A stretch of 64,000 bases of DNA, from NCBI GenBank assembly GCA_028715985.1, contig JAQUQR010000004.1, positions 73,223 to 137,222 on the forward strand, read 5' to 3'. Shown in pieces: positions 1,744 to 16,936 of this stretch. The DNA comes from Methanocellales archaeon (GTDB lineage Archaea > Halobacteriota > UBA148). A model generated the notes under the pieces. That model was not told the DNA's origin. It ran no database searches and saw nothing but the letters and a program-made list of their open reading frames with translations. Within the stretch, counting starts at the first letter, position 1; every line of letters begins with the position of its first letter. The translations under genes and the position numbers were made by a program.

Positions 1744-4700
1744 ATGAAGGGGGAAAAAATGAATAGTAGTAAACCTTTTAAAAATAGCGTTGACAGAAAA
1801 AAGATAACCTCGATAATATTAACAGCGATAATGTTGCTTTCGATATTTTCAGGCATCAGCGCTTCTGTAGCTGGGAATAACAACAACCGTGTTGGCAATA
1901 ACGTTGCTAGTCCGATGGAAGATGAAGGCGTGGGTGCAATGGCAGTCGGTAGCCTTGCAGCTAGCTTACATACATCATCTCCTTCTGCAAATATCGCCAA
2001 CTCGAGTGCTAACTTTACTAATGTCTTTTGGATTCGTTTTACCGCATCAGGTGAAAGTTCGAATATAACAAACATTACAATCACAGAGGCAGGAACGATT
2101 CACGGTACGAGTGAAATAATTGGAGTAGGCGTTAACGATACCGGTGGAACTGTGCTTGCTAAAAGCACTTTTTCTGCTGATAATGGAACGGCTACGCTTA
2201 CCATACCGGGTGGCTTCGAAGTGCCGGTTGGCACGCTGAAAGACCTCTACTTGTGGGTCAACACGACCGGATTTCCGCTTGGGCGTACGATAAAGCTGAC
2301 ATTAACGTCGTTCAATGCAACGGGTCTTGCTTCCGGACAAGCTGTTACAACGTCAGGAGTACCGCTTTCATCGAATGAAATAGCAGGTACTGGAAGGTTA
2401 ACGGCGGCAAACGGTCCAAGTGATGTTGCATCCCGCACCGTTAATGCAGGGGCAAACACAACTGGAATCGTGCTGGCGCAACTCAACTTCAGTGCAGAAA
2501 TCGAAGGATGCACGCTGAATACTGTTATGCTTACGGAAAATGGAACTGCAAACGGTACACAAGATTTCTCTGCTATTTATCTGGTGAATGATACCGATTC
2601 GGATGGCGTTTGGGATTCAAATGAGCCAATAGTAGGGACTACTGTGACTACGTTTTCCAAAGATAATGGCAGCGCAACCATAAGTGGAATTAGTAAAGCG
2701 ATACCGCTCAATGGCTGGTTAAATCTGCTGGTTGTGGTAAACACCACGAACCAGTTCTGGTCCGGTAACACTCTCAAGGTTAACATAACCAATGCGACGG
2801 ACTTCACCGCAACTGGTGCTACTTCGGGAGCAGCAACGGGCACATATGGAACCCCCTCATCGAATACAGCGACAGGGCAGGCAATGATTCAGGTGGCGGC
2901 AGGCGCCAAGCAGCCGTATCTCTCTTATGTGCTGGAAGGTCAAAGAGCATTGGTCGAGAGTGCACAGTTGAACTTCACTGCCATTGCAGGTCAGGTGAAC
3001 ATCACGCAAATTACGCTTGAGCAGTCGACGGTAACCAATTGGACCTATGCGGCCGCTGATACATTCCCCAAAGTCTACATAGATGTGGACGAGGATGGCA
3101 ATGTCACTGCTTTGGATACGCCATTAAACCTAACTGCGCTTAACTTTAAGACTAATAATGTGACTTTGGCGAGCTACGACACTACAATATCGGGCAATTT
3201 CTCAGATTATGCTAAACTAGCGAATGGTACGTTCCCGTATATACACATAGTAACTTTGACTAATGACACAATGGTTACAGCTTCATACCCAGAGTGGTGG
3301 TATAACATCAGCATTACCTACGTCAATAGTACTCATGCTACTGGTCAAACCAATACGACTTGGTCCAATATTACAAACGTCACAGTGGTCGATGCTGCAA
3401 ATGATACCTGGTGGCCTCTTGATATAGGCGCTAGTGAAATAGTGAGAGACATTACAGACATATCGTTCGTTACAGCTCACAATGTATCAGCTGTTGACAT
3501 CGACATCGTCGCAGGTTCACAAGTGATAGACGTTGTCTTGGATAGCAATCTAACAATTGGAAGCGTCAGTGAGACCACTGCAGGACAGGCATCGAAAATC
3601 ATCATAATAGCGGTGAATACAACTTCTGCATGGACTTCGGGCAACTATACGAAAGCATTACCCAATACGATTACAAAATACGGCAACTTCAGTAATTACG
3701 TTGCCTATGATGACACAACCGGGCAGATGACGAGGATATACCAGAACAATGACCCACTAAATACATCCATGAAGCAACTTAGTGCAGCAGTCGTTGGTGC
3801 AGTGTCCAATCCAGAGTTTAAGGTTCAGCTGGGAGCGAACACACCTACTTCCAATGTTGGCAAGAGCACCAATCTGGCTCCTGTGATGCAGTTGAGCTTC
3901 TCATATGGCGGCGTTGTAGGGGCTGATTTGGACTCAAAAGTATACCTGAGGGAATTAATCATTTCAACCAACGGCACGATCAACGAATCAAACAACGTCA
4001 CAGCATGTCTCGTTGTTGACACCAATGGCGATGGGGCAGTGAGTGCCGGTGAAACGATAGTAGCCAGTGTACTTTACTCAACCAATAATCAAACAATCAA
4101 GTTCACGCTCGCCACTCCGATCGAGATAATGCTCAACAATAAAGGCAATATGACATCAGAAGCTCTCATAGCCTACAAGCATTTGCTGATAGCATTCAAC
4201 ACATCTTCGAACATAGTTCTCGGTGAGACGATCAGACTCTACATGGACAACTCGTCCGTAGATTACATCGCCGATACAGGAACCAGCATGGTTGTAAACC
4301 AGACAAGTGCACAACTAATTGGGAACGCGCTAACAGCAGCAGGCTCAATAACAGCAACAAACACAAATGCGGTCACTGCTGGAACGGTTTCATCCGTGGT
4401 TGACGAGACCTACGTAGAACTAATACAGTTGAAGTTTACGGCAAGCAGCACTGAGGCTGTGAACATCACGAGCATAAATGTAACGTGGAACGGCACTGGC
4501 AATGGTTACGAGAAGACAAGCGGAATAGGGGTAATCAACGATACAGATATGGACGGTGTATGGGACATAACAGATACGGAACCGATGTTGAATAAAACGA
4601 CAATTGGAACTAATAACTTAGCATTCCTTAACGTGTCCTATGACAACCACAACATCACCGTTCCAGCAGGCGGGTCTGCCTATGTCTTGATATACGTGAA

Positions 4701-7359
4701 CACGACTGCTACTAGCATAAACACAAGTGATAAGATCGCATTGAACATAACGGCAGCGCCATACCTCAATTATAGCGCTGAGGGGAACGCCTCTAAGGTG
4801 ATCATCGCAGACCTCCAGACGACAACAATCTCTTCGGCAACGATGACTGCGGCTTGGACAGGAAGCATTAGCGCTGCAGGATACAACCTGACCGACAAGA
4901 CATGGGTCGAGGGTGCTCAGACGAACTTCCCAGTGTTGGCATTGAACTTCACAGCAACCAATGAAACGGCAAATATCACTTCGATGGTCCTAAGTGCATC
5001 TGGAACCGCCAATGAATCTGGCAATGTAACGCTAAAGCTGGTAGAGGATGTTGCACCGTTTGGCTCTTACGAGAGCGAGACGATATTAGCTACTGCAACT
5101 TTCACGGCTGACAATGGGGCGGTAACATTAACGCCGTCATCCCAGATTCAGGTGGTCGGTGGAAGCTACACGAAGGTACTTGTGGTCGCAGACATCACCG
5201 CAAAGGTTGAGGCAGGTACAAGCCTGGTGACTTCTTTGCTGGACCCATCTGTGCATTACAATGCGGTAGGTTACTACTCCGGAGCGAGAATCCAGGATGC
5301 AAGCACAACGGCGGTTTCAAACACGACATGGTCAACAGGAAACATTACGGTCCTCGTTGGAGCGAACAATACCATCACTGGACCGGTGGACGCACTGAAT
5401 AACACCTATGTTGAAGTAATGCAGTTGAACTTCTCGGCAACGTTCGGGATGGAAAACGTGAACATCACGGGAATCAACCTGACCGCAATGGGTACGGATC
5501 CATACAACGACACATGGGGAGTTGGACTCATCAACGATACAAATGCCAATGGTCTGATTGATGCCGGTGAAGCAGTAATTGGAAATGGCACATTCGATGT
5601 AAACGGCACGGCAGTAATCAATTTCGACTTTGTAGAGTATTGGAATCTGACGGTCAATGGCTCGGCTGTGCAAGAATGGGCAAATCAAACGTTCAACAAC
5701 ACGATCGTTTACGTGAATACGAGCAGCAACTTCAATGCCAGCGACTGGCTGCAGTTGAGACTGGAGAGCTACAACGCGACGGGCGTTACTTCCGGTCAAT
5801 CGTTAACCGCTTTCGGTACGACGATAACGTCCAACAAGCTCACCGGAACAGGGAACGTGACCGCTATGGATGGAGCCAGTGATGTGCTTAATGAAACAGT
5901 TATAAAGTCTGGTGTGAACACCAGCGTAGTGGTCTGGCAACTAAAACTCACGGCAGGAGCGGCTGAGAACATCACCATAACCAGCATAGACATATCAGAA
6001 AACGGAACCGCCAATGCGGCAACAGATATTGCAAGCATCTACCTGGTGAACGATACAAATGCGAATGGACTATGGAACACGACAGCAGGTGACAGCGGTA
6101 TCATTTCGAACGCAGGAACATTCACCGCCGATGATGGTACAGTAACGCTGACGCTGACTGCAAACAACACGGTACTTGCAGGGAATTCTGTTAATTACCT
6201 GCTGGTTGTGAACACAGCATCCACGTTCTACGAGGGAGAAACACTGTCGTTCTTCATTAACAGGTCAGCTCCAAACGGAGAGCCAACAAGAGTACAGGGA
6301 ATGATTGCAACCGGTGCAACTTCGGAAACAACCGTTTACAACAACTTCACATTCAGTCCAGCTTCGAACAAAACAATTGGGTCTGCCTGCATTGACGTCT
6401 ACGACACGACACAGACAACAGTAGCAATATATAACCAAACTGCCACCAACAAAGAGGTTCTCAGGGTGAACTTCAGTGCACCACAGGGAGCAGTGAACAT
6501 AACGAACATAACGCTGAGGGAGAACGGATCTGCACTGGTAGCACCTGGCGGAGGCATTCAGAATGTCAGTGTTTGGTACAATGGCGTGTGTTACAATAGC
6601 ACCTTGGCCAGTTTGTGGTCAGAGAACGGAACACTCCGCATAGAGACGGTGGGCATGGTCGTTAATGGCACGACCAACGAGGTTACGATAAAAGTGAACA
6701 CGACATCCGCTCTTGCAACTGGCCAGACAATAAACTTCGAACTCAACAGGACGTTAGGCAACGGATACAACGCATCGGGCAATGTTTCATTGAATATTAC
6801 CTCCAGTCAGACAGGCAACATAAGCAACCTGATTACGGTGCAGGGTGCACCATCAGGCGAGATATCCTTGAAGGCAGGTTGGAACTTCATTTCCGTGCCG
6901 AAGAAGCAGGATACCACCAAGGATACCTTTGGAGAGTTACTCGCTGGATGGACGACATGGACTGCATATTCATACAATGCAGCTACGAGTAGTTGGACAT
7001 CGTTGACTGCGAGCAGTTCAATCAATGACGATGTGTTAGCCGGTTACTGGGTCTACGTTGATACTGCGGGAACAGTCTATCTGTCTTACAAAGACGCAAG
7101 TTATTTACCACCACCAAGCAAAGCGCTTACAGGCAATGCATGGAATGCGATAGGCTTCTCGAACACTACTGCTCAGACTGCTGAGAATACATTGAAATCA
7201 GTGGATGGTTCGTGGAGCACAGTGATTGGATGGGATGCAACAAGCCAGAGCTATCAGGATGCAATCATCGAGGGTGACTTGACATCAACCATGAATCCCT
7301 TCCAGGGTTACTGGGTATGGATGACACAGGACGACACACTATCCGCAATAAGTGCCTAG
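1744..7359 (+). CDS. Giant (1871 aa) secreted, heavily N-glycosylation-sequon-rich cell-surface protein (S-layer/adhesin-like) with at least 6 internal ~150-aa repeats carrying DxDxDG Ca-binding-like loops and a divergent 2-copy C-terminal module
   Basis: It is a long uninterrupted ORF. The N-terminal hydrophobic segment (ITSIILTAIMLLSIFSGISASVAG) is a signal-peptide candidate. N-x-S/T sequons are very frequent. A repeated motif QLxF...NITxIxLxENGT...IYLVNDTDxDGxWD recurs. An alternative start is ATG 1759 (MNSS), which is preceded by GGGGG. Confidence 0.8.
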   Translation: MKGEKMNSSKPFKNSVDRKKITSIILTAIMLLSIFSGISASVAGNNNNRVGNNVASPMEDEGVGAMAVGSLAASLHTSSPSANIANSSANFTNVFWIRFTASGESSNITNITITEAGTIHGTSEIIGVGVNDTGGTVLAKSTFSADNGTATLTIPGGFEVPVGTLKDLYLWVNTTGFPLGRTIKLTLTSFNATGLASGQAVTTSGVPLSSNEIAGTGRLTAANGPSDVASRTVNAGANTTGIVLAQLNFSAEIEGCTLNTVMLTENGTANGTQDFSAIYLVNDTDSDGVWDSNEPIVGTTVTTFSKDNGSATISGISKAIPLNGWLNLLVVVNTTNQFWSGNTLKVNITNATDFTATGATSGAATGTYGTPSSNTATGQAMIQVAAGAKQPYLSYVLEGQRALVESAQLNFTAIAGQVNITQITLEQSTVTNWTYAAADTFPKVYIDVDEDGNVTALDTPLNLTALNFKTNNVTLASYDTTISGNFSDYAKLANGTFPYIHIVTLTNDTMVTASYPEWWYNISITYVNSTHATGQTNTTWSNITNVTVVDAANDTWWPLDIGASEIVRDITDISFVTAHNVSAVDIDIVAGSQVIDVVLDSNLTIGSVSETTAGQASKIIIIAVNTTSAWTSGNYTKALPNTITKYGNFSNYVAYDDTTGQMTRIYQNNDPLNTSMKQLSAAVVGAVSNPEFKVQLGANTPTSNVGKSTNLAPVMQLSFSYGGVVGADLDSKVYLRELIISTNGTINESNNVTACLVVDTNGDGAVSAGETIVASVLYSTNNQTIKFTLATPIEIMLNNKGNMTSEALIAYKHLLIAFNTSSNIVLGETIRLYMDNSSVDYIADTGTSMVVNQTSAQLIGNALTAAGSITATNTNAVTAGTVSSVVDETYVELIQLKFTASSTEAVNITSINVTWNGTGNGYEKTSGIGVINDTDMDGVWDITDTEPMLNKTTIGTNNLAFLNVSYDNHNITVPAGGSAYVLIYVNTTATSINTSDKIALNITAAPYLNYSAEGNASKVIIADLQTTTISSATMTAAWTGSISAAGYNLTDKTWVEGAQTNFPVLALNFTATNETANITSMVLSASGTANESGNVTLKLVEDVAPFGSYESETILATATFTADNGAVTLTPSSQIQVVGGSYTKVLVVADITAKVEAGTSLVTSLLDPSVHYNAVGYYSGARIQDASTTAVSNTTWSTGNITVLVGANNTITGPVDALNNTYVEVMQLNFSATFGMENVNITGINLTAMGTDPYNDTWGVGLINDTNANGLIDAGEAVIGNGTFDVNGTAVINFDFVEYWNLTVNGSAVQEWANQTFNNTIVYVNTSSNFNASDWLQLRLESYNATGVTSGQSLTAFGTTITSNKLTGTGNVTAMDGASDVLNETVIKSGVNTSVVVWQLKLTAGAAENITITSIDISENGTANAATDIASIYLVNDTNANGLWNTTAGDSGIISNAGTFTADDGTVTLTLTANNTVLAGNSVNYLLVVNTASTFYEGETLSFFINRSAPNGEPTRVQGMIATGATSETTVYNNFTFSPASNKTIGSACIDVYDTTQTTVAIYNQTATNKEVLRVNFSAPQGAVNITNITLRENGSALVAPGGGIQNVSVWYNGVCYNSTLASLWSENGTLRIETVGMVVNGTTNEVTIKVNTTSALATGQTINFELNRTLGNGYNASGNVSLNITSSQTGNISNLITVQGAPSGEISLKAGWNFISVPKKQDTTKDTFGELLAGWTTWTAYSYNAATSSWTSLTASSSINDDVLAGYWVYVDTAGTVYLSYKDASYLPPPSKALTGNAWNAIGFSNTTAQTAENTLKSVDGSWSTVIGWDATSQSYQDAIIEGDLTSTMNPFQGYWVWMTQDDTLSAISA

Positions 7360-7391
7360 TCAAAGCGCAACACAACAACAAAAAACAAAGA

Positions 7392-7440
7392 TAGGGAGAA
7401 TCAATCTCCCTAACATCTTTTTTTATTTTTATTTTCTTTT
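7392..7440 (+). terminator. Hairpin (AGGGAGA-ATCAA-TCTCCCT) followed by a long T-tract; candidate terminator of the giant gene
   Basis: A 7-bp inverted repeat is directly followed by tttttttatttttattttctttt. Archaeal terminators are oligo-T tracts. Confidence 0.45.
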
Positions 7441-7554
7441 AATTTCATTTTTTCATTGTTGATAAATACCAGTAGTTGATGGGAATGGCAAGAAAAACAA
7501 AAATTTATATTGTATATGGTAGTAAGTAAAGCGGAAAATACAATAAAATAAAAG

Positions 7555-8367
7555 ATGGATGTGAGGATGAAGGGCTATAATAAAAAACAGCTGTTGTATG
7601 CTATCTTGATCGTCTCTTTTTTGATGCTATTTTCGACTGTCGTGGTAGAAGCACAAGCACCAGTATTACCCTGTAGTTTTTATGGCAACGTTACCATCGA
7701 TGGGAAGCCTGCGCCCATAGGGACCGAGATCACAGCGAAAATGGATAATAAAACCTGTGGAAATATGACTGTAAGAGAAGAAGGTAAATATGGGGAATCA
7801 GCTGGGGAAAAATTAAGTGTGACCGGAAATATAGCGGACGAAAACAAGATAATTTCGTTCTACGTGGACGGAGATGAGGCGGAGGAAAAAGCTACATGGC
7901 AAATTGGAGGAGTTAACCGTCTGGATCTTAGCGTTAAGAAATCGAACATACAGACCCCTTCAAGTCCACCCTCTAGTGGTAGCGGGGGGATAAGTCCAAC
8001 CACGCCTGCACCAACGCCATCGTCCACTCTGGTTCCTGCGCCAACTCCAACCCCTACACCAACTTCTACTCCAACACCAACGCCTACCCCAACACCAGCA
8101 CCAACACCAGCACCAACTTCAACACCCCTACCAACACCAGCTCCTACACCAACATCAACTCCCACTCAAATGCCAACAACTACACCGACTCCCGCTCCTG
8201 TTTCTACTCCAAGACTATCGCTCATATCTGAGAGACCATCCTCTGAGAAGCCATCGAATGCCTTTGACTTAAATTCAGAGAAAATTATGCTAGTCTTTGG
8301 TATAATTTTGGTTGTATCAGCTTTGGTTGCATTAATGTTATATCGACGCAAAGGCGAGAAACTTTAG
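7555..8367 (+). CDS. Secreted surface protein with an N-terminal FYGxVTxxGxPAP beta-sandwich-like domain (family A), a Pro/Thr-rich linker and a C-terminal TM anchor with a basic tail (no PGF motif)
   Basis: Signal peptide [23 protein letters not shown]. The domain is shared with the 8464 gene. The linker is PTPTPTPT(S)[12 protein letters not shown]. The C-terminus is [27 protein letters not shown]. The start may be at M5 (7567). Confidence 0.7.
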
Positions 8368-8463
8368 AGATACGAACTGCATTTGTCTATTAAACCAAAA
8401 AGCTTTATTATATAGTAAGAAGTTTAATAAATAGTAAAGTCCAATACCTGAAGGGGCGTAAAG

Positions 8464-10842
8464 ATGAGGCAAATAAGGGGAGATTTAATAAGAAAGTCGA
8501 CTTCGATCGGCGTCATTGGAATGCTTATACTTTCGATGTTAACTATGATGGCAGTGCCATCAGTATCGGGAGTTGACGTCTTTCTACCTGCTAGTTTTTA
8601 TGGAGACGTAACTGTGAATGGGGAACCCGCACCCGTTAATACAGTGGTTACAGGAAGAATAGTTGATGCCGTAGGATCACCTGGTCAGGGTAACATAACG
8701 GTAACCGAAGCAGGCAAATATGGCGTGGCTGCTGGTGAGAAATTAGGTGTTTCAACTGATAACGAAAATGATAACGAAAAAACGATAGAATTCTACATAA
8801 AACTTCCTTCCGGGTCGGAAGGCAAAGCGGATCAAACCGCGACTTTTTCCATTGGTGGTATTACCAAATTGAATTTAACCGCTACGGTGGTAATAGGGAC
8901 GCCACCAACCATAACATCCTATTCACCTACCGATACCACACCGAATGATTACGAGGCTGCGACAAGAACGTTCTCGGTCACCGTTGATCAGCCGACAACA
9001 GTGGCATGGAGTATAAATGGAACCGTGGTCGAAACAGATGCAGGCGTACCTGCTTCTACAGCCGCCAGTTATACGAATGGGAGTGCTGTCGAAGGTTATT
9101 GGTCAGTTTCTGCGGTTGCAACGAACGTTACCTCAGGGTTGTCTGATACACAGACTTGGGAGTGGATGGTGGAGGACATAACGCCACCGGCAAAGGTAAC
9201 TGGATTGACAAGTGACACACCCACTCTTACCACCGTTAACCTTACGTGGGATGCAAGTACAGCCTCAGACTTTTTAAAATATAGCGTGTACAAGAATGGG
9301 GCACTATTGGACAATACCACAAATACATATTATAATGTAACTGGTTTGGAGGCCAGCACAACTTACTACTTTAACGTTTCCGCATGGGATGATAGCGACA
9401 ATGAAGGAGAATTGAGCGCTGGTGTTACCATAACGACGGCTTCCTACCCTGCACCAATTATTGTGGGTTATAACAACGTAACAGGCAGTTCACTCAGTAT
9501 AACGGTTAACGAAATGGAAGCAATACGGTTCAATGCAACTGCCGATCAAGCTATTACCACTTGGAATTGGTTCAGGGATGGGGTAAATCAGATTTGGAAT
9601 TACGATAGCTTTGAAACGTGCTGGAGCGTTAACGGAACCTACAGCGTTGCCGTGAATGCTACCAATGCAAATGGCACATCGAACACGGTTACATGGACGA
9701 TCGTGGTGAATGACATAACTTCGCCAGCGATGGTGACGGGATTAACGAATGGCACGCCAAGTTCCACTGGGGTTGATTTGTGGTGGACAGCAAACACAGA
9801 AGCGGACCTCGTCGGATACAGGGTATATCAGGACGGTTTGTTACTTGTAACCACTGCTAACGCCTACTACAGCGTAACCGGATTATCGCCAGCCACGACA
9901 TATACATTCAACGTTTCGGCATATGATGACAATGCTTTGGAAGGCGAGAACGCAACCATAAGTGTGACCACATCGCTCTATTCGGCACCAACGATCACTT
10001 CCTACACCATATCTAATCGCACCATTGCACCGCCGCAGACCACTGATATAGATGTGGCATTTTCGGAAGTGGTGGAAGCCTGGATACAAATCGAGGATTC
10101 AAACCACAACCTTGTGAAGGAATTGTATCACAGCTCCAGCGTAACCAATCCGACCGCTAAGACTTGGGATGGGACCTACACGAATGCAACCGTTGTTCCA
10201 GATGGCACCTATTACGTAAACGTTACGGGAATAAACGCAACAACTGGCTTGAGCGTGGTTGACAATACGCAGAGTATCGTGGTGGCATCTGAGGTAACCA
10301 TTCAGTACAACCTCGTCAAGAATCCCGGAAGCACGGGCAAGAACTGGATCAGCATACCGCTCACCACAAACATCACAACCGCATCCCAACTGATGTCTGT
10401 AATAGGGTCCAACTGCGATGCAGTCAACCGATGGAATCCTGTTACCCAGAAACCAGAAGGCTGGATCTCACTGATGGGCGGCATGGGCACTAACTTTGCA
10501 ATAGTGCCTGGCGAAGGCTACGAGGTATCGGTTACTGCGAATACGACCTTCAGCGTGACAGGTGCACCTGCAACCATCAGCCAGATTGACCTCGTCAAGA
10601 AACCCGGAAGCACGGGCAAGAACTGGATCGGTTTGCCCTACGACACCACGCTTACGTCTGCATCTACGGTGATGAGTTCAATAGGATCCAACTGCGATGC
10701 AGTCAACCGATGGAACCCTGTTACTCAGAAACCAGAAGGCTGGATCTCACTGATGGGCGGCATGGGCACTAACTTTGCCATCGTAACGGGCAGGGGATAC
10801 GAGGTATCGGTCACAGGCAATGTGACCTGGACACCTGTTTGA
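8464..10842 (+). CDS. Secreted modular surface protein (792 aa): family-A N-terminal domain, PKD-like domains, two fibronectin-III-like domains, an Ig-like domain and two tandem copies of the conserved KNWIS...GYEVSV C-terminal module
   Basis: Signal peptide IGVIGMLILSMLTMMAVPSVSG. FN3-like motifs (VNLTWDAS...YKNG...TxYxFNVSAWDD) occur twice. The C-terminal module copies lie at about 10300-10563 and 10585-10839. Confidence 0.8.
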   Translation: MRQIRGDLIRKSTSIGVIGMLILSMLTMMAVPSVSGVDVFLPASFYGDVTVNGEPAPVNTVVTGRIVDAVGSPGQGNITVTEAGKYGVAAGEKLGVSTDNENDNEKTIEFYIKLPSGSEGKADQTATFSIGGITKLNLTATVVIGTPPTITSYSPTDTTPNDYEAATRTFSVTVDQPTTVAWSINGTVVETDAGVPASTAASYTNGSAVEGYWSVSAVATNVTSGLSDTQTWEWMVEDITPPAKVTGLTSDTPTLTTVNLTWDASTASDFLKYSVYKNGALLDNTTNTYYNVTGLEASTTYYFNVSAWDDSDNEGELSAGVTITTASYPAPIIVGYNNVTGSSLSITVNEMEAIRFNATADQAITTWNWFRDGVNQIWNYDSFETCWSVNGTYSVAVNATNANGTSNTVTWTIVVNDITSPAMVTGLTNGTPSSTGVDLWWTANTEADLVGYRVYQDGLLLVTTANAYYSVTGLSPATTYTFNVSAYDDNALEGENATISVTTSLYSAPTITSYTISNRTIAPPQTTDIDVAFSEVVEAWIQIEDSNHNLVKELYHSSSVTNPTAKTWDGTYTNATVVPDGTYYVNVTGINATTGLSVVDNTQSIVVASEVTIQYNLVKNPGSTGKNWISIPLTTNITTASQLMSVIGSNCDAVNRWNPVTQKPEGWISLMGGMGTNFAIVPGEGYEVSVTANTTFSVTGAPATISQIDLVKKPGSTGKNWIGLPYDTTLTSASTVMSSIGSNCDAVNRWNPVTQKPEGWISLMGGMGTNFAIVTGRGYEVSVTGNVTWTPV

Positions 10843-10845
10843 ATT

Positions 10846-10890
10846 GAATGCACTGATGGTGCATTCATTCCTCCCTTTTTATTTTCATTT
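10846..10890 (+). terminator. Hairpin GAATGCAC-TGATG-GTGCATTC followed by a T-rich tract; candidate terminator
   Basis: An 8-bp inverted repeat lies immediately after the stop at 10842. It is followed by attcctccctttttattttcattt. Confidence 0.45.
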
Positions 10891-10957
10891 ACGGGCTGGC
10901 ACATCGGATAAAATAAAGTAGGGAAGGCATAATCACAAAATGGTGAGGTGAGAGGAA

Positions 10958-13393
10958 ATGCTGAAAAATAAGTTCATTTTTATTTCGGTTTTGATGGTGG
11001 CTTTTCTGGCACTGGCAAGCGGGGCCCAGGCAGCCCACTGGATTGCTGGTACTGTCAACGATGCAGCAGACGGCAAGCCTGCTGATGGGCATACGGTCAT
11101 CATATACTATCTGGGCGACGAAGCCCGTAATAATTCTGGCATCATAGGTCCAACGGTTGAGAATCCTGATATTTTAAATAACAAGTACCAGATTGATGCC
11201 CAAGCGATTCCAGGCCATACATGGAAAGAAGGCGATGTAATCTATGCGAAAGTAATTGACAACGGAGACGGCTATACTGCTGGACCGGTTTCCGTGACTA
11301 CAACAGGTGCAGGATACGATGTTGAGCCTGACATGACCCTTCAAGCCTCTGTAATGGCGAATGCAGGTCCTGACCAGATGGTTGATGAAGATGTTATAGT
11401 ATATTTCAACGGCTCAGCCTCCACTATGGCAGTCAATTACTCCTGGGACTTCGATGCCAGCGATGGAATCCAGGAGGATGCTACAGGAGTTAACGTGAGC
11501 CATGTCTATGCCGATCCCGGTGTATATACAGTAACCCTCACCATAAACGCCGGAGCGAGCAATGACACCCTAATAGTCACCGTAAACGACATCACGTCCC
11601 CAACAGCCAATGCAGGTTCGGATCAGACCGTTTTAAACGGTACAACAGTGACATTTAACGGCACCTTATCCACCGATAACGTCGCCATAGTAAACTACTC
11701 TTGGGACTTCGATGCCAGTAACGGCATCCAGGAGGATGCTACAGGTGCTGTTGTGACCTATCTTTATCCCGCTTTTGGCACCTACACGGCAACCCTTACC
11801 GTATCTGACGCAGCAGGCAACAATGACACGGACACGGTCAATATAACTGTCACGGAGGTCAGAGCAGATGCAGGTCCTGACCAGACGGTTGATGAAGACA
11901 CGGTGGTCTATTTCAACGGTTCCAACTCTTCAGGTGCGTTAAACCACTCCTGGGATTTCGATGTAAGCGACGGCATCCAATCAGATGCCACAGGAGTTAA
12001 CGTGAGCCATATCTACGCTCAACCAGGCGTTTACACCGTAACCCTCACCATAAACGCCGGAGCGAGCAATGACACCCTTGTCGTCACAGTGAATGACATC
12101 ACGCCCCCAACAGCCAACGCAGGTCCAGATCAGAACGTTCTAAACGGCACTCTTGTGCAATTCAATGGAACGTTATCCACCGACAATGTCGCTATAGTAA
12201 ACTACTCCTGGGACTTCGATGCCAGCGATGGCATTCAAGAGGACGCTACAGGTGCTGTTGTGACCCATCTTTATCCCGCTTTTGGCACCTACACGGCAAC
12301 CCTTACCGTATCTGACGCAGCAGGCAACAATGACACTGACATAGTCAACATCACCGTCGCGGCAATAATAGCAGATGCAGGTCCTGACCAGACGGTTAAC
12401 GAGGACATCGTAGTCTATTTCAACGGCTCAGGCTCTTCAGGTGCGTTAAACTACTCTTGGGATTTCGATGCAAGCGACGGCATCCAATCAGATGCCACAG
12501 GAGTTAACGTGAGCCATATCTACGCTCAACCAGGCGTTTACACCGTAACCCTCACCATAAACGCCGGAGCGAGCAATGACACTCTAACGGTCACAGTAAA
12601 GGATGTAACGCCACCGACAGCCAATGCGGGTCCCAACCAAATTGTATTAAACGGCACTTTTGCTGAATTCAATGGATCATCATCCACCGATAACGTCGCT
12701 ATAGTAAACTACTCCTGGGACTTCGATGCCAGCAACGGCATTCAGGAGGATGCTACAGGCGCTATAGTAACCCATCTTTACCCAACCTTTGGCACCTACA
12801 CGGCAACCCTCACCGTATCTGACGCAGCAGGCAACAATGACACTGACACCGTTAACGTCAGCGTAGTGCCTTCAGTTGCACCCATTGGATTGACAGTGGT
12901 GTTAAATGCGGATAATACGGTCACATTAACCTGGGTTGAATCCCTTTTGGGCAATTTTGACATCTATGCATCAAACACATCTGGAGTCAGCCTAGTTACT
13001 CCCATAGCTACAGGTTATGGATATTCTTGGACAGATAACGATGCGGATGCTTATTCCCATAGGTATTATAAGGTCAGAGCCAAGGGAATTATTGGGTCCG
13101 AAACCATTGCAAAATATGACGTTAACCTCGTCAAAAAGCCCGGCGGCACAGGTAAGAATTGGATATCGATGCCTGAAAATCCTGCCATTACAAATGCATC
13201 CTCCTTAATGAAGGCAATAGGGCCCACATGTGACTCCATAAACCGATGGAACCCTGTTACCCAGAAACCAGAAGGCTGGATCTCACTGATGGGCGGCATG
13301 GGCACGAATTTTGCTGTTACACCCTATGAAGGCTACGAGGTATCTGTCAACGCCAACACAACGTTTACTGTTGTGGGAATCATGGGCTATTAG
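10958..13393 (+). CDS. Secreted PKD-repeat surface protein (811 aa): family-B N-terminal domain (AHWIxGTVNDAAD...), three tandem units of 169 aa that are 2 PKD domains each, then one copy of the conserved C-terminal module
   Basis: Signal peptide FISVLMVAFLALASGAQA|AHW. PKD signatures (NYSWDFDASDGI...HxYxxPGVYTVTLTI) recur. The C-terminal module lies at about 13112-13375. Confidence 0.85.
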   Translation: MLKNKFIFISVLMVAFLALASGAQAAHWIAGTVNDAADGKPADGHTVIIYYLGDEARNNSGIIGPTVENPDILNNKYQIDAQAIPGHTWKEGDVIYAKVIDNGDGYTAGPVSVTTTGAGYDVEPDMTLQASVMANAGPDQMVDEDVIVYFNGSASTMAVNYSWDFDASDGIQEDATGVNVSHVYADPGVYTVTLTINAGASNDTLIVTVNDITSPTANAGSDQTVLNGTTVTFNGTLSTDNVAIVNYSWDFDASNGIQEDATGAVVTYLYPAFGTYTATLTVSDAAGNNDTDTVNITVTEVRADAGPDQTVDEDTVVYFNGSNSSGALNHSWDFDVSDGIQSDATGVNVSHIYAQPGVYTVTLTINAGASNDTLVVTVNDITPPTANAGPDQNVLNGTLVQFNGTLSTDNVAIVNYSWDFDASDGIQEDATGAVVTHLYPAFGTYTATLTVSDAAGNNDTDIVNITVAAIIADAGPDQTVNEDIVVYFNGSGSSGALNYSWDFDASDGIQSDATGVNVSHIYAQPGVYTVTLTINAGASNDTLTVTVKDVTPPTANAGPNQIVLNGTFAEFNGSSSTDNVAIVNYSWDFDASNGIQEDATGAIVTHLYPTFGTYTATLTVSDAAGNNDTDTVNVSVVPSVAPIGLTVVLNADNTVTLTWVESLLGNFDIYASNTSGVSLVTPIATGYGYSWTDNDADAYSHRYYKVRAKGIIGSETIAKYDVNLVKKPGGTGKNWISMPENPAITNASSLMKAIGPTCDSINRWNPVTQKPEGWISLMGGMGTNFAVTPYEGYEVSVNANTTFTVVGIMGY
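11357..12877 (+). repeat. Tandem DNA repeat of 3 x about 507 bp inside the PKD gene (each unit encodes two PKD domains), about 90 percent identical
   Basis: The unit boundary GCAGATGCAGGTCCTGACCAG recurs at about 11357, 11864 and 12371. Long identical runs are visible between copies. Confidence 0.8.
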
Positions 13394-13458
13394 GTGGATA
13401 AAAGTATATATATGTAATACGCACATAAAAATAGGGAAAGGGAGGTATCAAAAAAAAG

Positions 13459-14709
13459 ATGAGAGCGAATAAACTTATTTTTATTTCGGTCTTAACAGTG
13501 GCTTTCCTGGCACTGATGAGCGGAGCGCAAGCAGCCCACTGGATTTCTGGAACGGTCAACGATGCCGCAGACAGCACGCCAGCAAACGGACACAAGGTCA
13601 TCATCTACTATCTGGGAGACCAAGCCCATAACGTATCCGACACCATAGGTCCCGCTGGTATGTCTGGTACGAGTAACATGTATATGTGTGATGCTGAGTC
13701 CATTCCAGGTCACGTATGGGCTCCCGGCGATGTAATCTACGCCAAGGTAATTGACACCGGCGACGGCTACACTGCTGGGCCAGTTTCTGTGACTACCACA
13801 GGTGCAGGCTTCGATACTGAGCCTACCATGACACTCGAAATTTGGGTACCGCCACCCATCGTGGCAGAGCCCCAGGCAAGCCCATCGCAAATAAGCATCA
13901 ATACAGGCGTTACGGAACTGAGCGTCAAAGTGTACAAAACCTCTTATGACATTGATACGGTTACAGTAAACCTCTCTCAAATTGGTGGTCTGAGTAATCA
14001 CATGATGAGCCTCAAGGAAGTCATTAACGCTACGGCCTCCATTTATAATTGTACAACCAACTCAAGTGTGGAAGGTACTTTTAGTCTTCCGGTAAATGCC
14101 ACAGACATCTACGGCAATTCCAACACATCCGTTAGCATTTCTCTGGAGGTCACAAGTGCCATTCAAATCCAGTACAACCTCGTCAAAAAGCCTGGAAGCA
14201 CAGGCAAGAACTGGATCAGCATACCTCTTGAAACGAACATTACAACAGCATCCCAATTAATGTCTGCAATAGGATCCAACTGCGATGCAGTCAACCGATG
14301 GAACCCTGTTACCCAGAAATCAGAAGGCTGGATTTCACTATTTGGAGGCATGGGCACTAACTTTGCAATAGTGCCTGGCGAAGGCTACGAAGTATCGGTC
14401 ACAGCAAACACGACTTTCTCAGTCTTAGGAACCATACCCACCACACAAAGCATCAATCTCGTCAAAAAACCTGGCAGCACTGGCAAGAATTGGGTCGGAC
14501 TTCCCTACTTCACAACCAAATCCAATGCCTCTCAACTGATGAGTTCAATAGGATCCAACTGCGATGCAGTCAACCGATGGAACCCTGTTACCCAGAAATC
14601 AGAAGGTTGGATTTCACTATTTGGAGGCATGGGTACGAACTTCAACATCACAACAGGCGCAGGCTACGAAGTATCGGTTACAGGAAATACGACATGGATG
14701 CCTACTTGA
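13459..14709 (+). CDS. Secreted surface protein (416 aa): family-B N-terminal domain, a central Ig-like region and two tandem copies of the conserved C-terminal module
   Basis: Signal peptide FISVLTVAFLALMSGAQA|AHW is nearly identical to those of the 10958 and 14779 genes. Module copies lie at about 14161-14425 and 14452-14706. A TATA-like aagtatatatatg and a GGGAGG RBS lie upstream. Confidence 0.85.
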   Translation: MRANKLIFISVLTVAFLALMSGAQAAHWISGTVNDAADSTPANGHKVIIYYLGDQAHNVSDTIGPAGMSGTSNMYMCDAESIPGHVWAPGDVIYAKVIDTGDGYTAGPVSVTTTGAGFDTEPTMTLEIWVPPPIVAEPQASPSQISINTGVTELSVKVYKTSYDIDTVTVNLSQIGGLSNHMMSLKEVINATASIYNCTTNSSVEGTFSLPVNATDIYGNSNTSVSISLEVTSAIQIQYNLVKKPGSTGKNWISIPLETNITTASQLMSAIGSNCDAVNRWNPVTQKSEGWISLFGGMGTNFAIVPGEGYEVSVTANTTFSVLGTIPTTQSINLVKKPGSTGKNWVGLPYFTTKSNASQLMSSIGSNCDAVNRWNPVTQKSEGWISLFGGMGTNFNITTGAGYEVSVTGNTTWMPT

Positions 14710-14778
14710 GTCAAAAAGAAAAAATTAATAATTGAATTAGAAAAAAATACTGAATAGGAAGTGAGAAGGGAGAAAAAG

Positions 14779-16143
14779 ATGAAACAGAAAATATGTCTTG
14801 TATTTGTCTTAACAGTGGCTTTCTTGGCACTGATGAGCGGGGCTCAAGCAGCCCACTGGATTTCTGGAACGGTCAACGATGCCGCAGACAGCACGCCAGC
14901 AAACGGACACACGGTCATCATCTACTATCTGGGAGATGAAGCCAATTATGTATCCGACACCATAGGTCCAACCGGCGCATCTGGTACAAATAACATGTAT
15001 ATGTGCGATTCGGAGTCCATTCCAAACCATGTATGGGCTCCCGGCGATGTGATCTACGCGAAAGTAACAGACAATGGAGATGGCTACACCGCTGGACCGG
15101 TTTCCGTGACTACAACAGGTGCAGGCTTTGATGTTATGCCTGCCATGACACTTCAGGCAGCACCAGACACAACAGCACCTGTGATAACAAGCCCAACAGC
15201 AACCCCATCTTCAATACCTGCGGATGGAGCTACGACATCTGTGTTGAACGCAACGGTAACGGATAATGTCGGCATCGCAAGCGTTACAGTGGACCTCTCT
15301 ACAATAGGGGGCTCTGCTACGACAGCGATGACGAAGGTTGGCACTACAGACGTTTACAGCGTAACCACGACTGCATCGACATCGACAGCCTTAGGAACCA
15401 AAAGCTTAACAGTCACTGCGACTGACACTAATACCACTCCGAATACGGCAACCAGTAGCATTTCATTGACTGTTACAGCCGTACCAGACACATTTGCACC
15501 CATAGTTACCAACCCAACTGCGACGCCATCCACCATATACGCAAACGGGATTGCAACATCTCAGTTGAGCGTAACGGTAACGGATGGTACTGGCATCGCA
15601 AGCGTTACAGTGAACCTCTCTGCAATAGGGGGCTCTGCTACGACAGCGATGACGAAGGTTGGCACTACAGACGTTTACAGCGTAACCACGACCGCAGCGC
15701 CAACGACAGCACCTGGGACCTACAACTTGGCTGTTACTGCGACAGACAGCAGTACGAACGCTAACACCAACACATCGGTTAGCATTTCATTGACGGTTCA
15801 GGCGTTGCCTGTGACCATCACGTCAGTCTCGATCGACGATTCAACCGCCAGCAAGGGACAGAACTTCACTGCGCGCATAAACATGAGTTCAACTGTTACT
15901 GGGTGGTATGTCGTTGTTGTCAGTGGAATTGAATCCGGCGGAGAAGGTATAGCTGGTATAGGAACGGTCTATTTAACTGCAAGTCAGTCTGTAACGAATA
16001 TGCCTGTACTCGTGCATATCCCGTCTCAGGCAACAGTGGGTAGTTATACCCTCTATGCAGGAGCATATGCGATAGGTGACTATCCAGCAAACCTAGCAAG
16101 CATAATAGACCATGCAGGGCCTGTGACTGCGACGGTCACATGA
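14779..16143 (+). CDS. Secreted surface protein (about 455 aa): family-B N-terminal domain, 2 x 106-aa tandem Ig-like repeats and a distinct C-terminal beta-domain; it lacks the KNWIS module
   Basis: The ORF track starts at 14761. ATG 14779 (MKQKICLVFVL) is preceded by GAAGGGAG. The N-terminal coding sequence is about 95 percent identical in DNA to the 13459 gene. Confidence 0.8.
   Translation: MKQKICLVFVLTVAFLALMSGAQAAHWISGTVNDAADSTPANGHTVIIYYLGDEANYVSDTIGPTGASGTNNMYMCDSESIPNHVWAPGDVIYAKVTDNGDGYTAGPVSVTTTGAGFDVMPAMTLQAAPDTTAPVITSPTATPSSIPADGATTSVLNATVTDNVGIASVTVDLSTIGGSATTAMTKVGTTDVYSVTTTASTSTALGTKSLTVTATDTNTTPNTATSSISLTVTAVPDTFAPIVTNPTATPSTIYANGIATSQLSVTVTDGTGIASVTVNLSAIGGSATTAMTKVGTTDVYSVTTTAAPTTAPGTYNLAVTATDSSTNANTNTSVSISLTVQALPVTITSVSIDDSTASKGQNFTARINMSSTVTGWYVVVVSGIESGGEGIAGIGTVYLTASQSVTNMPVLVHIPSQATVGSYTLYAGAYAIGDYPANLASIIDHAGPVTATVT
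15160..15797 (+). repeat. Tandem 2 x about 318-bp repeat with an 80-bp core of near-100 percent identity, inside the 14779 gene
   Basis: The stretch ctctct(a/g)caatagggggctctgctacgacagcgatgacgaaggttggcactacagacgtttacagcgtaaccacga occurs twice. Confidence 0.8.
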
Positions 16144-16153
16144 CTCTTTTGAT

Positions 16154-16936
16154 TTGTGGGGAGATGAACTAACCATGAAAAAAAGAGTTGAATGGGGAAT
16201 TGTTTTAGCAATTCTCGTATTGGCATCTTCATTAATCGCACCCGCATCTGCTGTAGATCAGCTTGCTATTTCAGTCTCTCCTGATCCAGCGGTTCAAGAC
16301 CTAGCCTTAACGGTAACCGTTACAGCGTCAGGCAGTCCTGTCTCAGGCGTATTCGTACAGTTTATCCTGAATGGTGGAACGCCAATATATGCATCGACGG
16401 ATGCAAGCGGTCAAGCGATATTTAAACCGCTTCTGACAGGCACATTGGAGATAATTGCGACAAAATCAGGGTATCTAACCGCAACTAAATCTGTATCGGT
16501 TGGGGTGGCGCCTACGCCTACACCCACGCCCACACCTACACCCACGCCTACGCCCGTAACTCCTGGAACAGGTGGCGGCGGGTACGTACCGTCACCTACA
16601 CCGACGGCAACACCAACAGCAACACCAGCGCCAACAGCAACACCAACAGCAACACCAACAGCAACACCAACAGCAGCACCAGCACCCACACCAGCACCCA
16701 CACCAGCACCCACACCTGCACCCACACCTGCGCCAACACCGAAACCAACACCAGCACCTACACCAGCACCCACACCAGCGCCTACACCAAAACCAACACC
16801 AGCACCTACAGTCAGACCAACGCTAGCCCCAGCTCCAACACCCACGCCAACGCCTGGTATACCGGGATTTGAGGCAGCCTTCGCAATCGTTGGACTCCTA
16901 GCGGTTGCATATTTGATTAGACGAAGAGAATATTAA
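16154..16936 (+). CDS. Secreted PGF-CTERM protein (archaeosortase A substrate) with a PEGA/carboxypeptidase-regulatory-like beta-domain and a long Pro/Thr/Ala linker
   Basis: Signal peptide [18 protein letters not shown]. The C-terminus [27 protein letters not shown] is the canonical PGF-CTERM pattern (PGF, then TM, then Arg-rich end). The gene starts 11 bp after the previous stop. Confidence 0.85.
16508..16858 (+). repeat. Low-complexity microsatellite-like DNA (ACACCAGCACC-type units) encoding the PT/PA linker; it generates artefactual ORFs in other frames
   Basis: Tandem acaccagcacccacaccagc units. The antisense ORF (16411..16845) is poly-GV and the +2 frame ORF is poly-QH. Confidence 0.8.

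Follow-up and report, generated by a model that had tools for sequence, protein, structure and literature searches.

Within the 64,000-nucleotide stretch of a Methanocellales contig analysed here (JAQUQR010000004.1, hereafter the window), a giant secreted surface protein of 1871 amino acids (aa), taken from the open reading frame (ORF) list and its translation (1744–7359, + strand), ended in a tandem of two domains, R1 and R2. This tandem is almost certainly a real repeat that belongs to a large family, the GWN...GYW family, and profile comparisons and structural models point to remote homology with the KNWISIP...GYEVSV module that ended three other proteins encoded further downstream. The best overall explanation, which we regard as probable, is that the duplicated C-terminal unit of this family fastens surface proteins lacking an anchor of their own to the cell envelope.

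The C-terminal tandem and its family

A reading of the DNA without database searches (the sequence-only reading) had described two ~80-aa repeats in the last ~165 aa of the giant, and these were borne out at residues 1707–1871 (6862–7356), with both tail motifs, AGWNFISVP...GYWVYV and NAWNAIGFS...GYWVWM, present. R1 (GWNFISVP ... W ... GYWVYV; 6862–7116, + strand) scored 72.8 bits with an R1-profile hidden Markov model (HMM), and R2 (AWNAIGFS ... GWDA ... GYWVWM ... TLSAISA-COOH; 7120–7356, + strand, running up to the stop codon) scored 95.9 bits with an R2-profile HMM; both HMMs were made from family members, and their placement agreed to the nucleotide with that reading. Compared directly, R1 and R2 shared 20% identity (BLASTP E 7e-4 in the pairwise search space), which is weak evidence by itself. 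When the first and second halves of a 153-sequence family alignment served as deep profiles, hhalign aligned them over 67 columns with 95.6% probability (E 1.1e-8). The score was 20 with the shallow profile and 45 with the deep one, against 11 ± 2 (maximum 18) for column-shuffled controls. The C-terminus of the giant matched positions 4–174 of the two-domain profile at 176.6 bits. An AlphaFold2 (AF2) model of the tandem (predicted local distance difference test, pLDDT, 93.6; predicted template modelling score, pTM, 0.88) was a compact, closed monomeric unit in which each domain had the order β-β-α-β-β-β-β. Depletion of N-x-S/T sequons in the tandem was considered as further evidence and dropped, since there was 1 sequon in 170 residues compared to a shuffle mean of 2.0 (P = 0.37) and the family-wide difference in density was small (1.15 vs 1.86 per 100 aa).

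Seeded by an alignment of three relatives (all that a word-indexed search had found), an exhaustive HMMER search for the tandem yielded 3,666 cluster representatives with E ≤ 1e-3, of which 240 had E ≤ 1e-30. Of the 152 top hits, 142 showed a match running to the final residue of the protein, and the family terminus was conserved as [GC]-T-L-A-A-I-[GS]-A. Host proteins were 116 to 2,292 aa long; 114 of the 170 family proteins starting with Met had a signal-like hydrophobic N-terminus, and a further, internal membrane-like segment was found in none of 215. Passengers included PKD, fasciclin, NosD-like β-helix, PF14478 and Listeria-Bacteroides repeats, and some proteins of 200–250 aa consisted of a signal peptide and the tandem only (e.g. 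P0003, 207 aa). The tandem sits almost always at the extreme C-terminus of secreted anchor-less proteins with highly varied passengers. When one genome per species was scanned, 309 loci emerged, of which 79 were kept, mostly from Methanoculleus, Methanospirillum, Methanolinea, Methanofollis, Methanocalculus and Methanoregulaceae. Tandem loci also occurred in Methanocellaceae, Ca. Alkanophaga and Ca. Argoarchaeum, with several paralogs per genome, and a few short tandem-bearing contigs binned as bacteria were probably mis-binned.

No Pfam or NCBIfam model covered the tandem, the module or the FYG domain described below (the tandem, 50 family members, 10 distant members and FYG proteins were scanned), and none of the 50 family members matched the dockerin model PF00404. 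Sequence-profile searches of the PDB with the tandem and module alignments gave nothing meaningful, and Foldseek of the AF2 models of both against the PDB gave no match at E ≤ 1e-3, with template modelling (TM) scores below 0.3. Weak Foldseek matches common to both models (vitamin K gamma-carboxylase lumenal domain, 3rns, 4zrx) were not treated as evidence. The motif strings occurred in no searchable paper, and the literature on methanogen surface proteins, S-layer anchors and dockerins, within what could be searched, offered background only. The tandem family and the two-gene display arrangement described below are missing from the curated libraries and literature searched; the job itself is of a known kind.

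Homology between the tandem and the KNWISIP module

The KNWISIP...GYEVSV module ended the 792-, 811- and 416-aa proteins encoded in the same gene island as the giant. Seven copies had been counted from the sequence; five were found in the window, all on the + strand. Two ended the 792-aa protein (KNWISIP...GYEVSV, 10303–10560, module HMM 148.8 bits; KNWIGLP...GYEVSV, 10582–10839, up to the stop codon, 148.4 bits), a single C-terminal copy ended the 811-aa PKD protein (KNWISMP...GYEVSV, 13121–13372, 142.4 bits), and two ended the 416-aa protein (14170–14424, 152.9 bits; 14452–14706, up to the stop codon, 146.2 bits). Homologs of the module amounted to 19 matches, those with a source name coming from Methanocellales/Halobacteriota metagenome-assembled genomes, and the module profile was built from 29 full copies from the window and these 19 homologs.

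The sequence-only reading had seen in the giant's repeats the motif spacing of the module and had proposed comparing the two by HHalign and by predicted structure; the HHalign comparison and the secondary structure of the models agreed with it. Profile-profile alignment reproduced the spacing, placing N-x-I-[SG]-x-[PS] on N-W-I-S-I-P, the central W of RWNP on GWDA, and GYEVSV on GYWVWM. The match to R2 was nearly full length at 91–94% probability and E 1e-6 to 1e-7 (91–92%, E ~1e-6, for the module; 94%, E 1e-7, for the second module copy alone), and the match to R1 reached 52–64%, the first module copy matching R1 best (64%). The module-tandem score of 38 lay ~13 standard deviations above a column-shuffled null of 11 ± 2 (maximum 18), reversed profiles scored 9, and decoy β-domains of the same proteins (PKD, a shared N-terminal domain and FYG) gave at most 1.2%. 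A bridge protein, P0238, matched both the tandem profile (E 7e-11) and the module profile (E 3e-4) at a database size (Z) of 1.84 billion sequences. In an iterative HMM search begun from the module only, this bridge came in during round 1 and P0158 and P0038 during round 2; round 3 added 159 tandem-family proteins, among them the giant (E 6e-8 at the same Z), and all 18 unrelated proteins of the set stayed out throughout. The two AF2 models were built from non-overlapping alignments, and that of the module tandem of the 416-aa protein (pLDDT 91.1, pTM 0.86) again comprised two β-β-α-β-β-β-β domains, with the same order of secondary-structure elements as the giant's tandem. Under the profile alignment, DSSP assignments agreed at 76% of positions between copy 1 and R1 and at 84% between copy 2 and R2, compared to 22–49% with a shifted alignment. 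Both forms held the same C-terminal, usually tandem, position.

Direct similarity was weaker and counts against this homology. HMM-to-sequence scores between the giant and the module were not individually significant (5–12 bits), and those between the two groups were positive and in register, again not individually significant (5–24 bits). The module HMM gave 5.3 bits on R2 of the giant compared to 7.9 bits on a spurious ORF, and the family HMMs scored the modules at 5–16 bits, below database-scale significance. Because of these weak scores, homology rests on the profile-profile, transitive and structural-consistency evidence. Such scores would be expected if the giant repeats and the module were unrelated small β-domains that share a few aromatic motifs by chance or convergence, and neither AF2 model had a significant PDB neighbour tying both to one known fold. 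That explanation appears improbable given the distance of the profile-profile match from shuffled nulls and decoys, the co-linear and in-register nature of all the weak HMM matches, a bridge protein significant to both profiles, an iterative search that converged on the family without decoys, and the agreement of independent models in secondary structure and of both forms in position. Profiles and models together argue that the giant repeats and the KNWISIP module are very likely remote homologs within one domain superfamily.

The giant had been thought to carry an ancient, divergent version of the module. The family sizes reverse this: the giant's tandem is the widespread, mainstream form (3,666 representatives), and the rare KNWISIP module (19 matches) is a narrow, lineage-restricted, derived offshoot. 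Module copy 1 paired best with R1 and copy 2 with R2, a weak hint that the tandem arrangement predates the split; the signal is weak because copies 1 and 2 are themselves almost identical, and we make no claim from it. Elsewhere, genes with the KNWISIP module stood in mixed contexts (a subtilisin cluster, a prepilin-peptidase cluster and unrelated genes). Small proteins consisting of a signal peptide and two KNWISIP-type modules were encoded in clusters of short genes (L082, 3075–3704; L080–L081, 5001–5636). The L082–L084 cluster also contained a prepilin peptidase (Peptidase_A24), a resolvase and a 1293-aa DUF2341 protein, and the L080–L081 cluster a subtilisin-like protease; the context of these clusters may be pilus-like or that of a mobile element.

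The downstream FYG gene and a possible docking role

Co-oriented with the giant gene and 195 nt downstream of it was the gene for a 270-aa candidate membrane anchor or adaptor (7555–8367, + strand). Its translation comprised a signal peptide, a β-domain that we named FYG (7648–7941; FYG HMM 126 bits, no Pfam match), and a Pro/Thr-rich linker leading to a C-terminal membrane helix with the basic tail RRKGEKL. The FYG domain is ~100 aa long with the consensus LP.eFYG.V.inG.pAP.Gt.I.A ... G.YG ... F.VnG ... LdL, and a second one (8569–8889, + strand, FYG HMM 120 bits) lay N-terminally in the 792-aa protein, the one with two modules at its end. In the 79 loci, a same-strand FYG gene lay directly downstream of 45 of 85 scorable tandem genes (counting those whose partner gene was already seen or that had 400 nt or more of sequence after them), at gaps of −24 to +200 nt, mostly 3–37 nt. 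The downstream FYG proteins had signal peptides, and most of the complete ones ended in a membrane helix and basic tail; a few ended in dockerin repeats instead of the helix (Pfam Dockerin_1, E 4e-6). A further 10 of the 85 tandem genes carried FYG repeats internally. Methanospirillum tandem proteins had three internal FYG repeats and no downstream FYG gene (L040, L045, L046, L050, L056, L063, L069, L079), an arrangement that is a fused version of the two-gene layout. When the neighbours of the 79 loci were clustered, no protease, sortase-like or transporter gene recurred, only FYG genes and other surface proteins. Distances between tandems and between FYG domains were correlated over 41 pairs (Mantel r = 0.74, reached by 0 of 2,000 permutations), and the two genes have therefore been inherited and duplicated together, which fits a physical partnership.

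Since a folded unit ends secreted proteins that lack an anchor, and since it is tightly coupled genetically to a membrane-anchored protein, we infer a role in attachment or docking, to which we give an even chance. The tandem would hold such proteins non-covalently on the cell envelope, and its most likely partner would be the FYG domain of the directly downstream membrane-anchored protein. In the window this would be the 270-aa protein, on whose Pro/Thr-rich stalk the giant, predicted from its 110 sequons to be heavily glycosylated, would be held. The choice of the FYG protein as partner is tentative, and several observations weigh against it. Thirty of the 85 tandem genes, short tandem-only ones included, had FYG neither downstream nor inside. 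No FYG gene followed the KNWISIP-module genes on other contigs. FYG also occurred inside some tandem proteins and could be just a common surface-protein domain, and shared phylogeny, or duplication of both genes together, would likewise produce the Mantel correlation. With similar reserve, we suggest that the tandem and FYG could be complementary parts of a widespread and so far undescribed protein-protein docking system of methanogens and related archaea. Such a system would operate in Methanomicrobiales, Methanocellales, Alkanophaga and Argoarchaeum and would serve proteins from 200 aa up to glycoprotein giants of 2,000 aa, with membrane-anchored or dockerin-bearing FYG adaptors as the display platform and the KNWISIP module as a re-specified variant with a different partner.

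Alternatively, the tandem might be a lectin-like or S-layer-binding anchor (cf. SLH and CWB2) that binds glycans or the lattice and not FYG, the downstream gene then encoding a co-expressed but separate surface protein. Tryptophan and tyrosine were invariant at W17, W55, W73, W104, W128, Y160 and W161 of the 175-aa unit, as is typical of carbohydrate-binding surfaces, the hosts carry glycosylated S-layers (PMC5744192), and 30 of the 85 tandem genes, like the module genes elsewhere, lack an FYG association. However, the conserved aromatics may be core residues, no Pfam carbohydrate-binding family matched, and glycan binding leaves the tight, directional coupling to FYG and the correlated divergence of the two domains unexplained; we consider it unlikely. 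A C-terminal secretion or sorting domain resembling the one in type IX secretion (T9SS), removed or exchanged for an anchor by dedicated machinery, would account for the strict extreme C-terminal site, the precisely conserved terminus and the highly varied passengers. Yet at 165 aa in two domains the tandem is much larger than known sorting signals, neither Por_Secre_tail nor PGF-CTERM models matched it, the 79 loci lacked a conserved protease, sortase-like or transporter gene nearby, and proteins made of a signal peptide and tandem only, such as P0003, would be pointless under a pure sorting tag, so that this explanation has little probability. Least probable is self-association into a filament, lattice or donor-strand-like exchange, with large proteins joining a polymer of tandem-only proteins: the many 200–250-aa tandem-only proteins and the clustering of two-module small proteins with prepilin peptidase and small genes (L082–L084) would suit it, but the tandem models as a closed monomer with no missing strand evident, and polymerization leaves the downstream membrane-anchored partner gene unexplained.

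The gene island and known attachment systems

The giant gene opened an island of seven co-oriented genes for secreted proteins (1744–16936), in the order 1871-aa giant, 270-aa, 792-aa, 811-aa, 416-aa, 460-aa and 260-aa proteins, in a window that also encoded RNA polymerase B/A'/A'', exosome subunits, proteasome alpha and SMC. The giant itself had a hydrophobic N-terminal signal followed by ~1660 aa of β-rich repeats and lacked a further membrane segment. Its passenger (1744–6861) was built of repeated β-rich units of ~150–170 aa with a D.D.DG/N.NG loop. Of its 110 N-x-S/T sequons, 108 lay in the 1,661-residue passenger region (6.5 per 100 aa). The giant had no Pfam match above threshold, the passenger likewise no NCBIfam or PDB relative, and the sole match to dockerin type I (PF00404), an EF-hand-like one produced by this loop, was sub-threshold (E 0.074) at residues 446–483, far from the tandem. 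For this Methanocellales lineage, the giant is a candidate S-layer or canopy protein, and its 1867-aa ortholog P0026 was annotated as 'beta strand repeat-containing protein [Halobacteriota archaeon]'. Synteny of the island was kept in Methanocellaceae UBA148 (L001) and Halobacteriota archaeon SAG AM-311-A10 (L002), where the giant ortholog was followed by two FYG membrane proteins (~175 aa and 217–264 aa; the window has one) and then by a homolog of the 792-aa protein.

The sequence-only reading had supposed that one domain would tie all the envelope proteins of the island together. Only four of the seven carry it. A C-terminal membrane helix or PGF-CTERM signal is present instead in the 270- and 260-aa proteins, and the 460-aa protein has none of these: neither module, C-terminal membrane helix nor PGF-CTERM signal was found in it. 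The 811-, 416- and 460-aa proteins had in common an N-terminal domain of ~105 aa after the signal peptide (10958–11300, 13459–13800 and 14761–15100; consensus AAHWI.GTVNDAAD..PA.GH.VIIYYLGD ... YTAGPVSV.TTGAG.D), which had no Pfam or NCBIfam match; the 811-aa protein additionally carried six PKD domains upstream of its module. The 260-aa protein (16154–16936) combined a PGF-CTERM signal (E 1.3e-9) with a long linker of Pro, Thr and Ala. As module- or tandem-type and PGF-CTERM proteins occur in the same island, two different anchoring strategies would coexist there. A 144-aa antisense ORF (16411–16845) was a Gly/Val-rich mirror of the linker of the 260-aa protein and is surely no gene. DNA tandem repeats with short periods of 6–30 nt (8041–8162 and 16509–16849), which could differ in length among strains, encoded the Pro/Thr linkers in the 270-aa and the 260-aa protein, respectively.

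Among known systems, the gene layout recalls the two-component S-layer of Sulfolobales, made of SlaA (outer canopy) and SlaB (membrane stalk) and encoded by adjacent co-transcribed genes, in which a stalk protein with a C-terminal membrane helix associates non-covalently with its partner (PMC5744192). As there, a large anchor-less protein, N-glycosylated in the case of the giant to judge from its sequons, is followed by a co-oriented gene for a smaller protein with an N-terminal β-domain, a stalk and a membrane helix; at the gene level, this layout was seen in the window and at 45 of 85 related loci. Unlike in SlaB, the stalk is a Pro/Thr-rich linker and not a coiled coil, and genomes carry many paralogous pairs with different passengers, which looks like a general display system and not one lattice. 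Homology to SlaA or SlaB was not apparent, as neither the giant passenger nor the tandem had a sequence relative in the PDB (entries to 2026, the presence among them of the solved SlaA/SlaB structures described in PMC10903991 being unconfirmed). Related archaea commonly have cohesin and dockerin proteins (PMC9012536). In cohesin-dockerin pairs, archaeal non-cellulosomal ones included, and in the system proposed here, a small C-terminal module of varied secreted proteins would dock on a module of an anchored protein, and some downstream FYG proteins end in true dockerin repeats. However, the tandem is a two-domain unit of 165 aa, called all-β, whereas dockerin is a Ca-binding helical domain of ~60 aa, and neither the tandem nor FYG matched the Pfam dockerin or cohesin models. 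The C-terminal domain of T9SS cargo (Por_Secre_tail, TIGR04183) is likewise β-rich and ~80 aa long and likewise stands at the very C-terminal end of many secreted proteins that are unrelated to each other, but it is bacterial (Bacteroidota), single and cleaved by a sortase-like enzyme. TIGR04183 did not match the tandem or the module, its lone weak match lying in a PKD repeat of the 811-aa protein. Lipid anchoring through PGF-CTERM and archaeosortase A is the standard means of fixing surface proteins in Halobacteriota. The PGF-CTERM model (TIGR04126), which identified the 260-aa protein, found no such signal in the giant or the 792-, 811- and 416-aa proteins. Since the giant and the module-bearing proteins have neither a C-terminal membrane helix nor a PGF motif, the tandem appears to be an alternative to PGF-CTERM and not a version of it.

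How surface proteins of Methanomicrobiales and Methanocellales are fixed when they have no helix or archaeosortase signal was not described in the libraries and papers that could be searched. The present analysis defines a domain family of thousands that marks such proteins, and ties it to a second, local module and to an adjoining candidate partner gene, so that a question of envelope organization becomes concrete: does one domain bind the other? Should docking fail, there would still be a new domain family, well supported and modelled structurally with high confidence. The two HMMs provide a sequence handle for annotating the surface proteomes of methanogens and alkane-oxidizing archaea. If docking is true, the tandem and FYG would form an archaeal counterpart of cohesin-dockerin or SlaA-SlaB, made from two families absent from Pfam, NCBIfam and the PDB.

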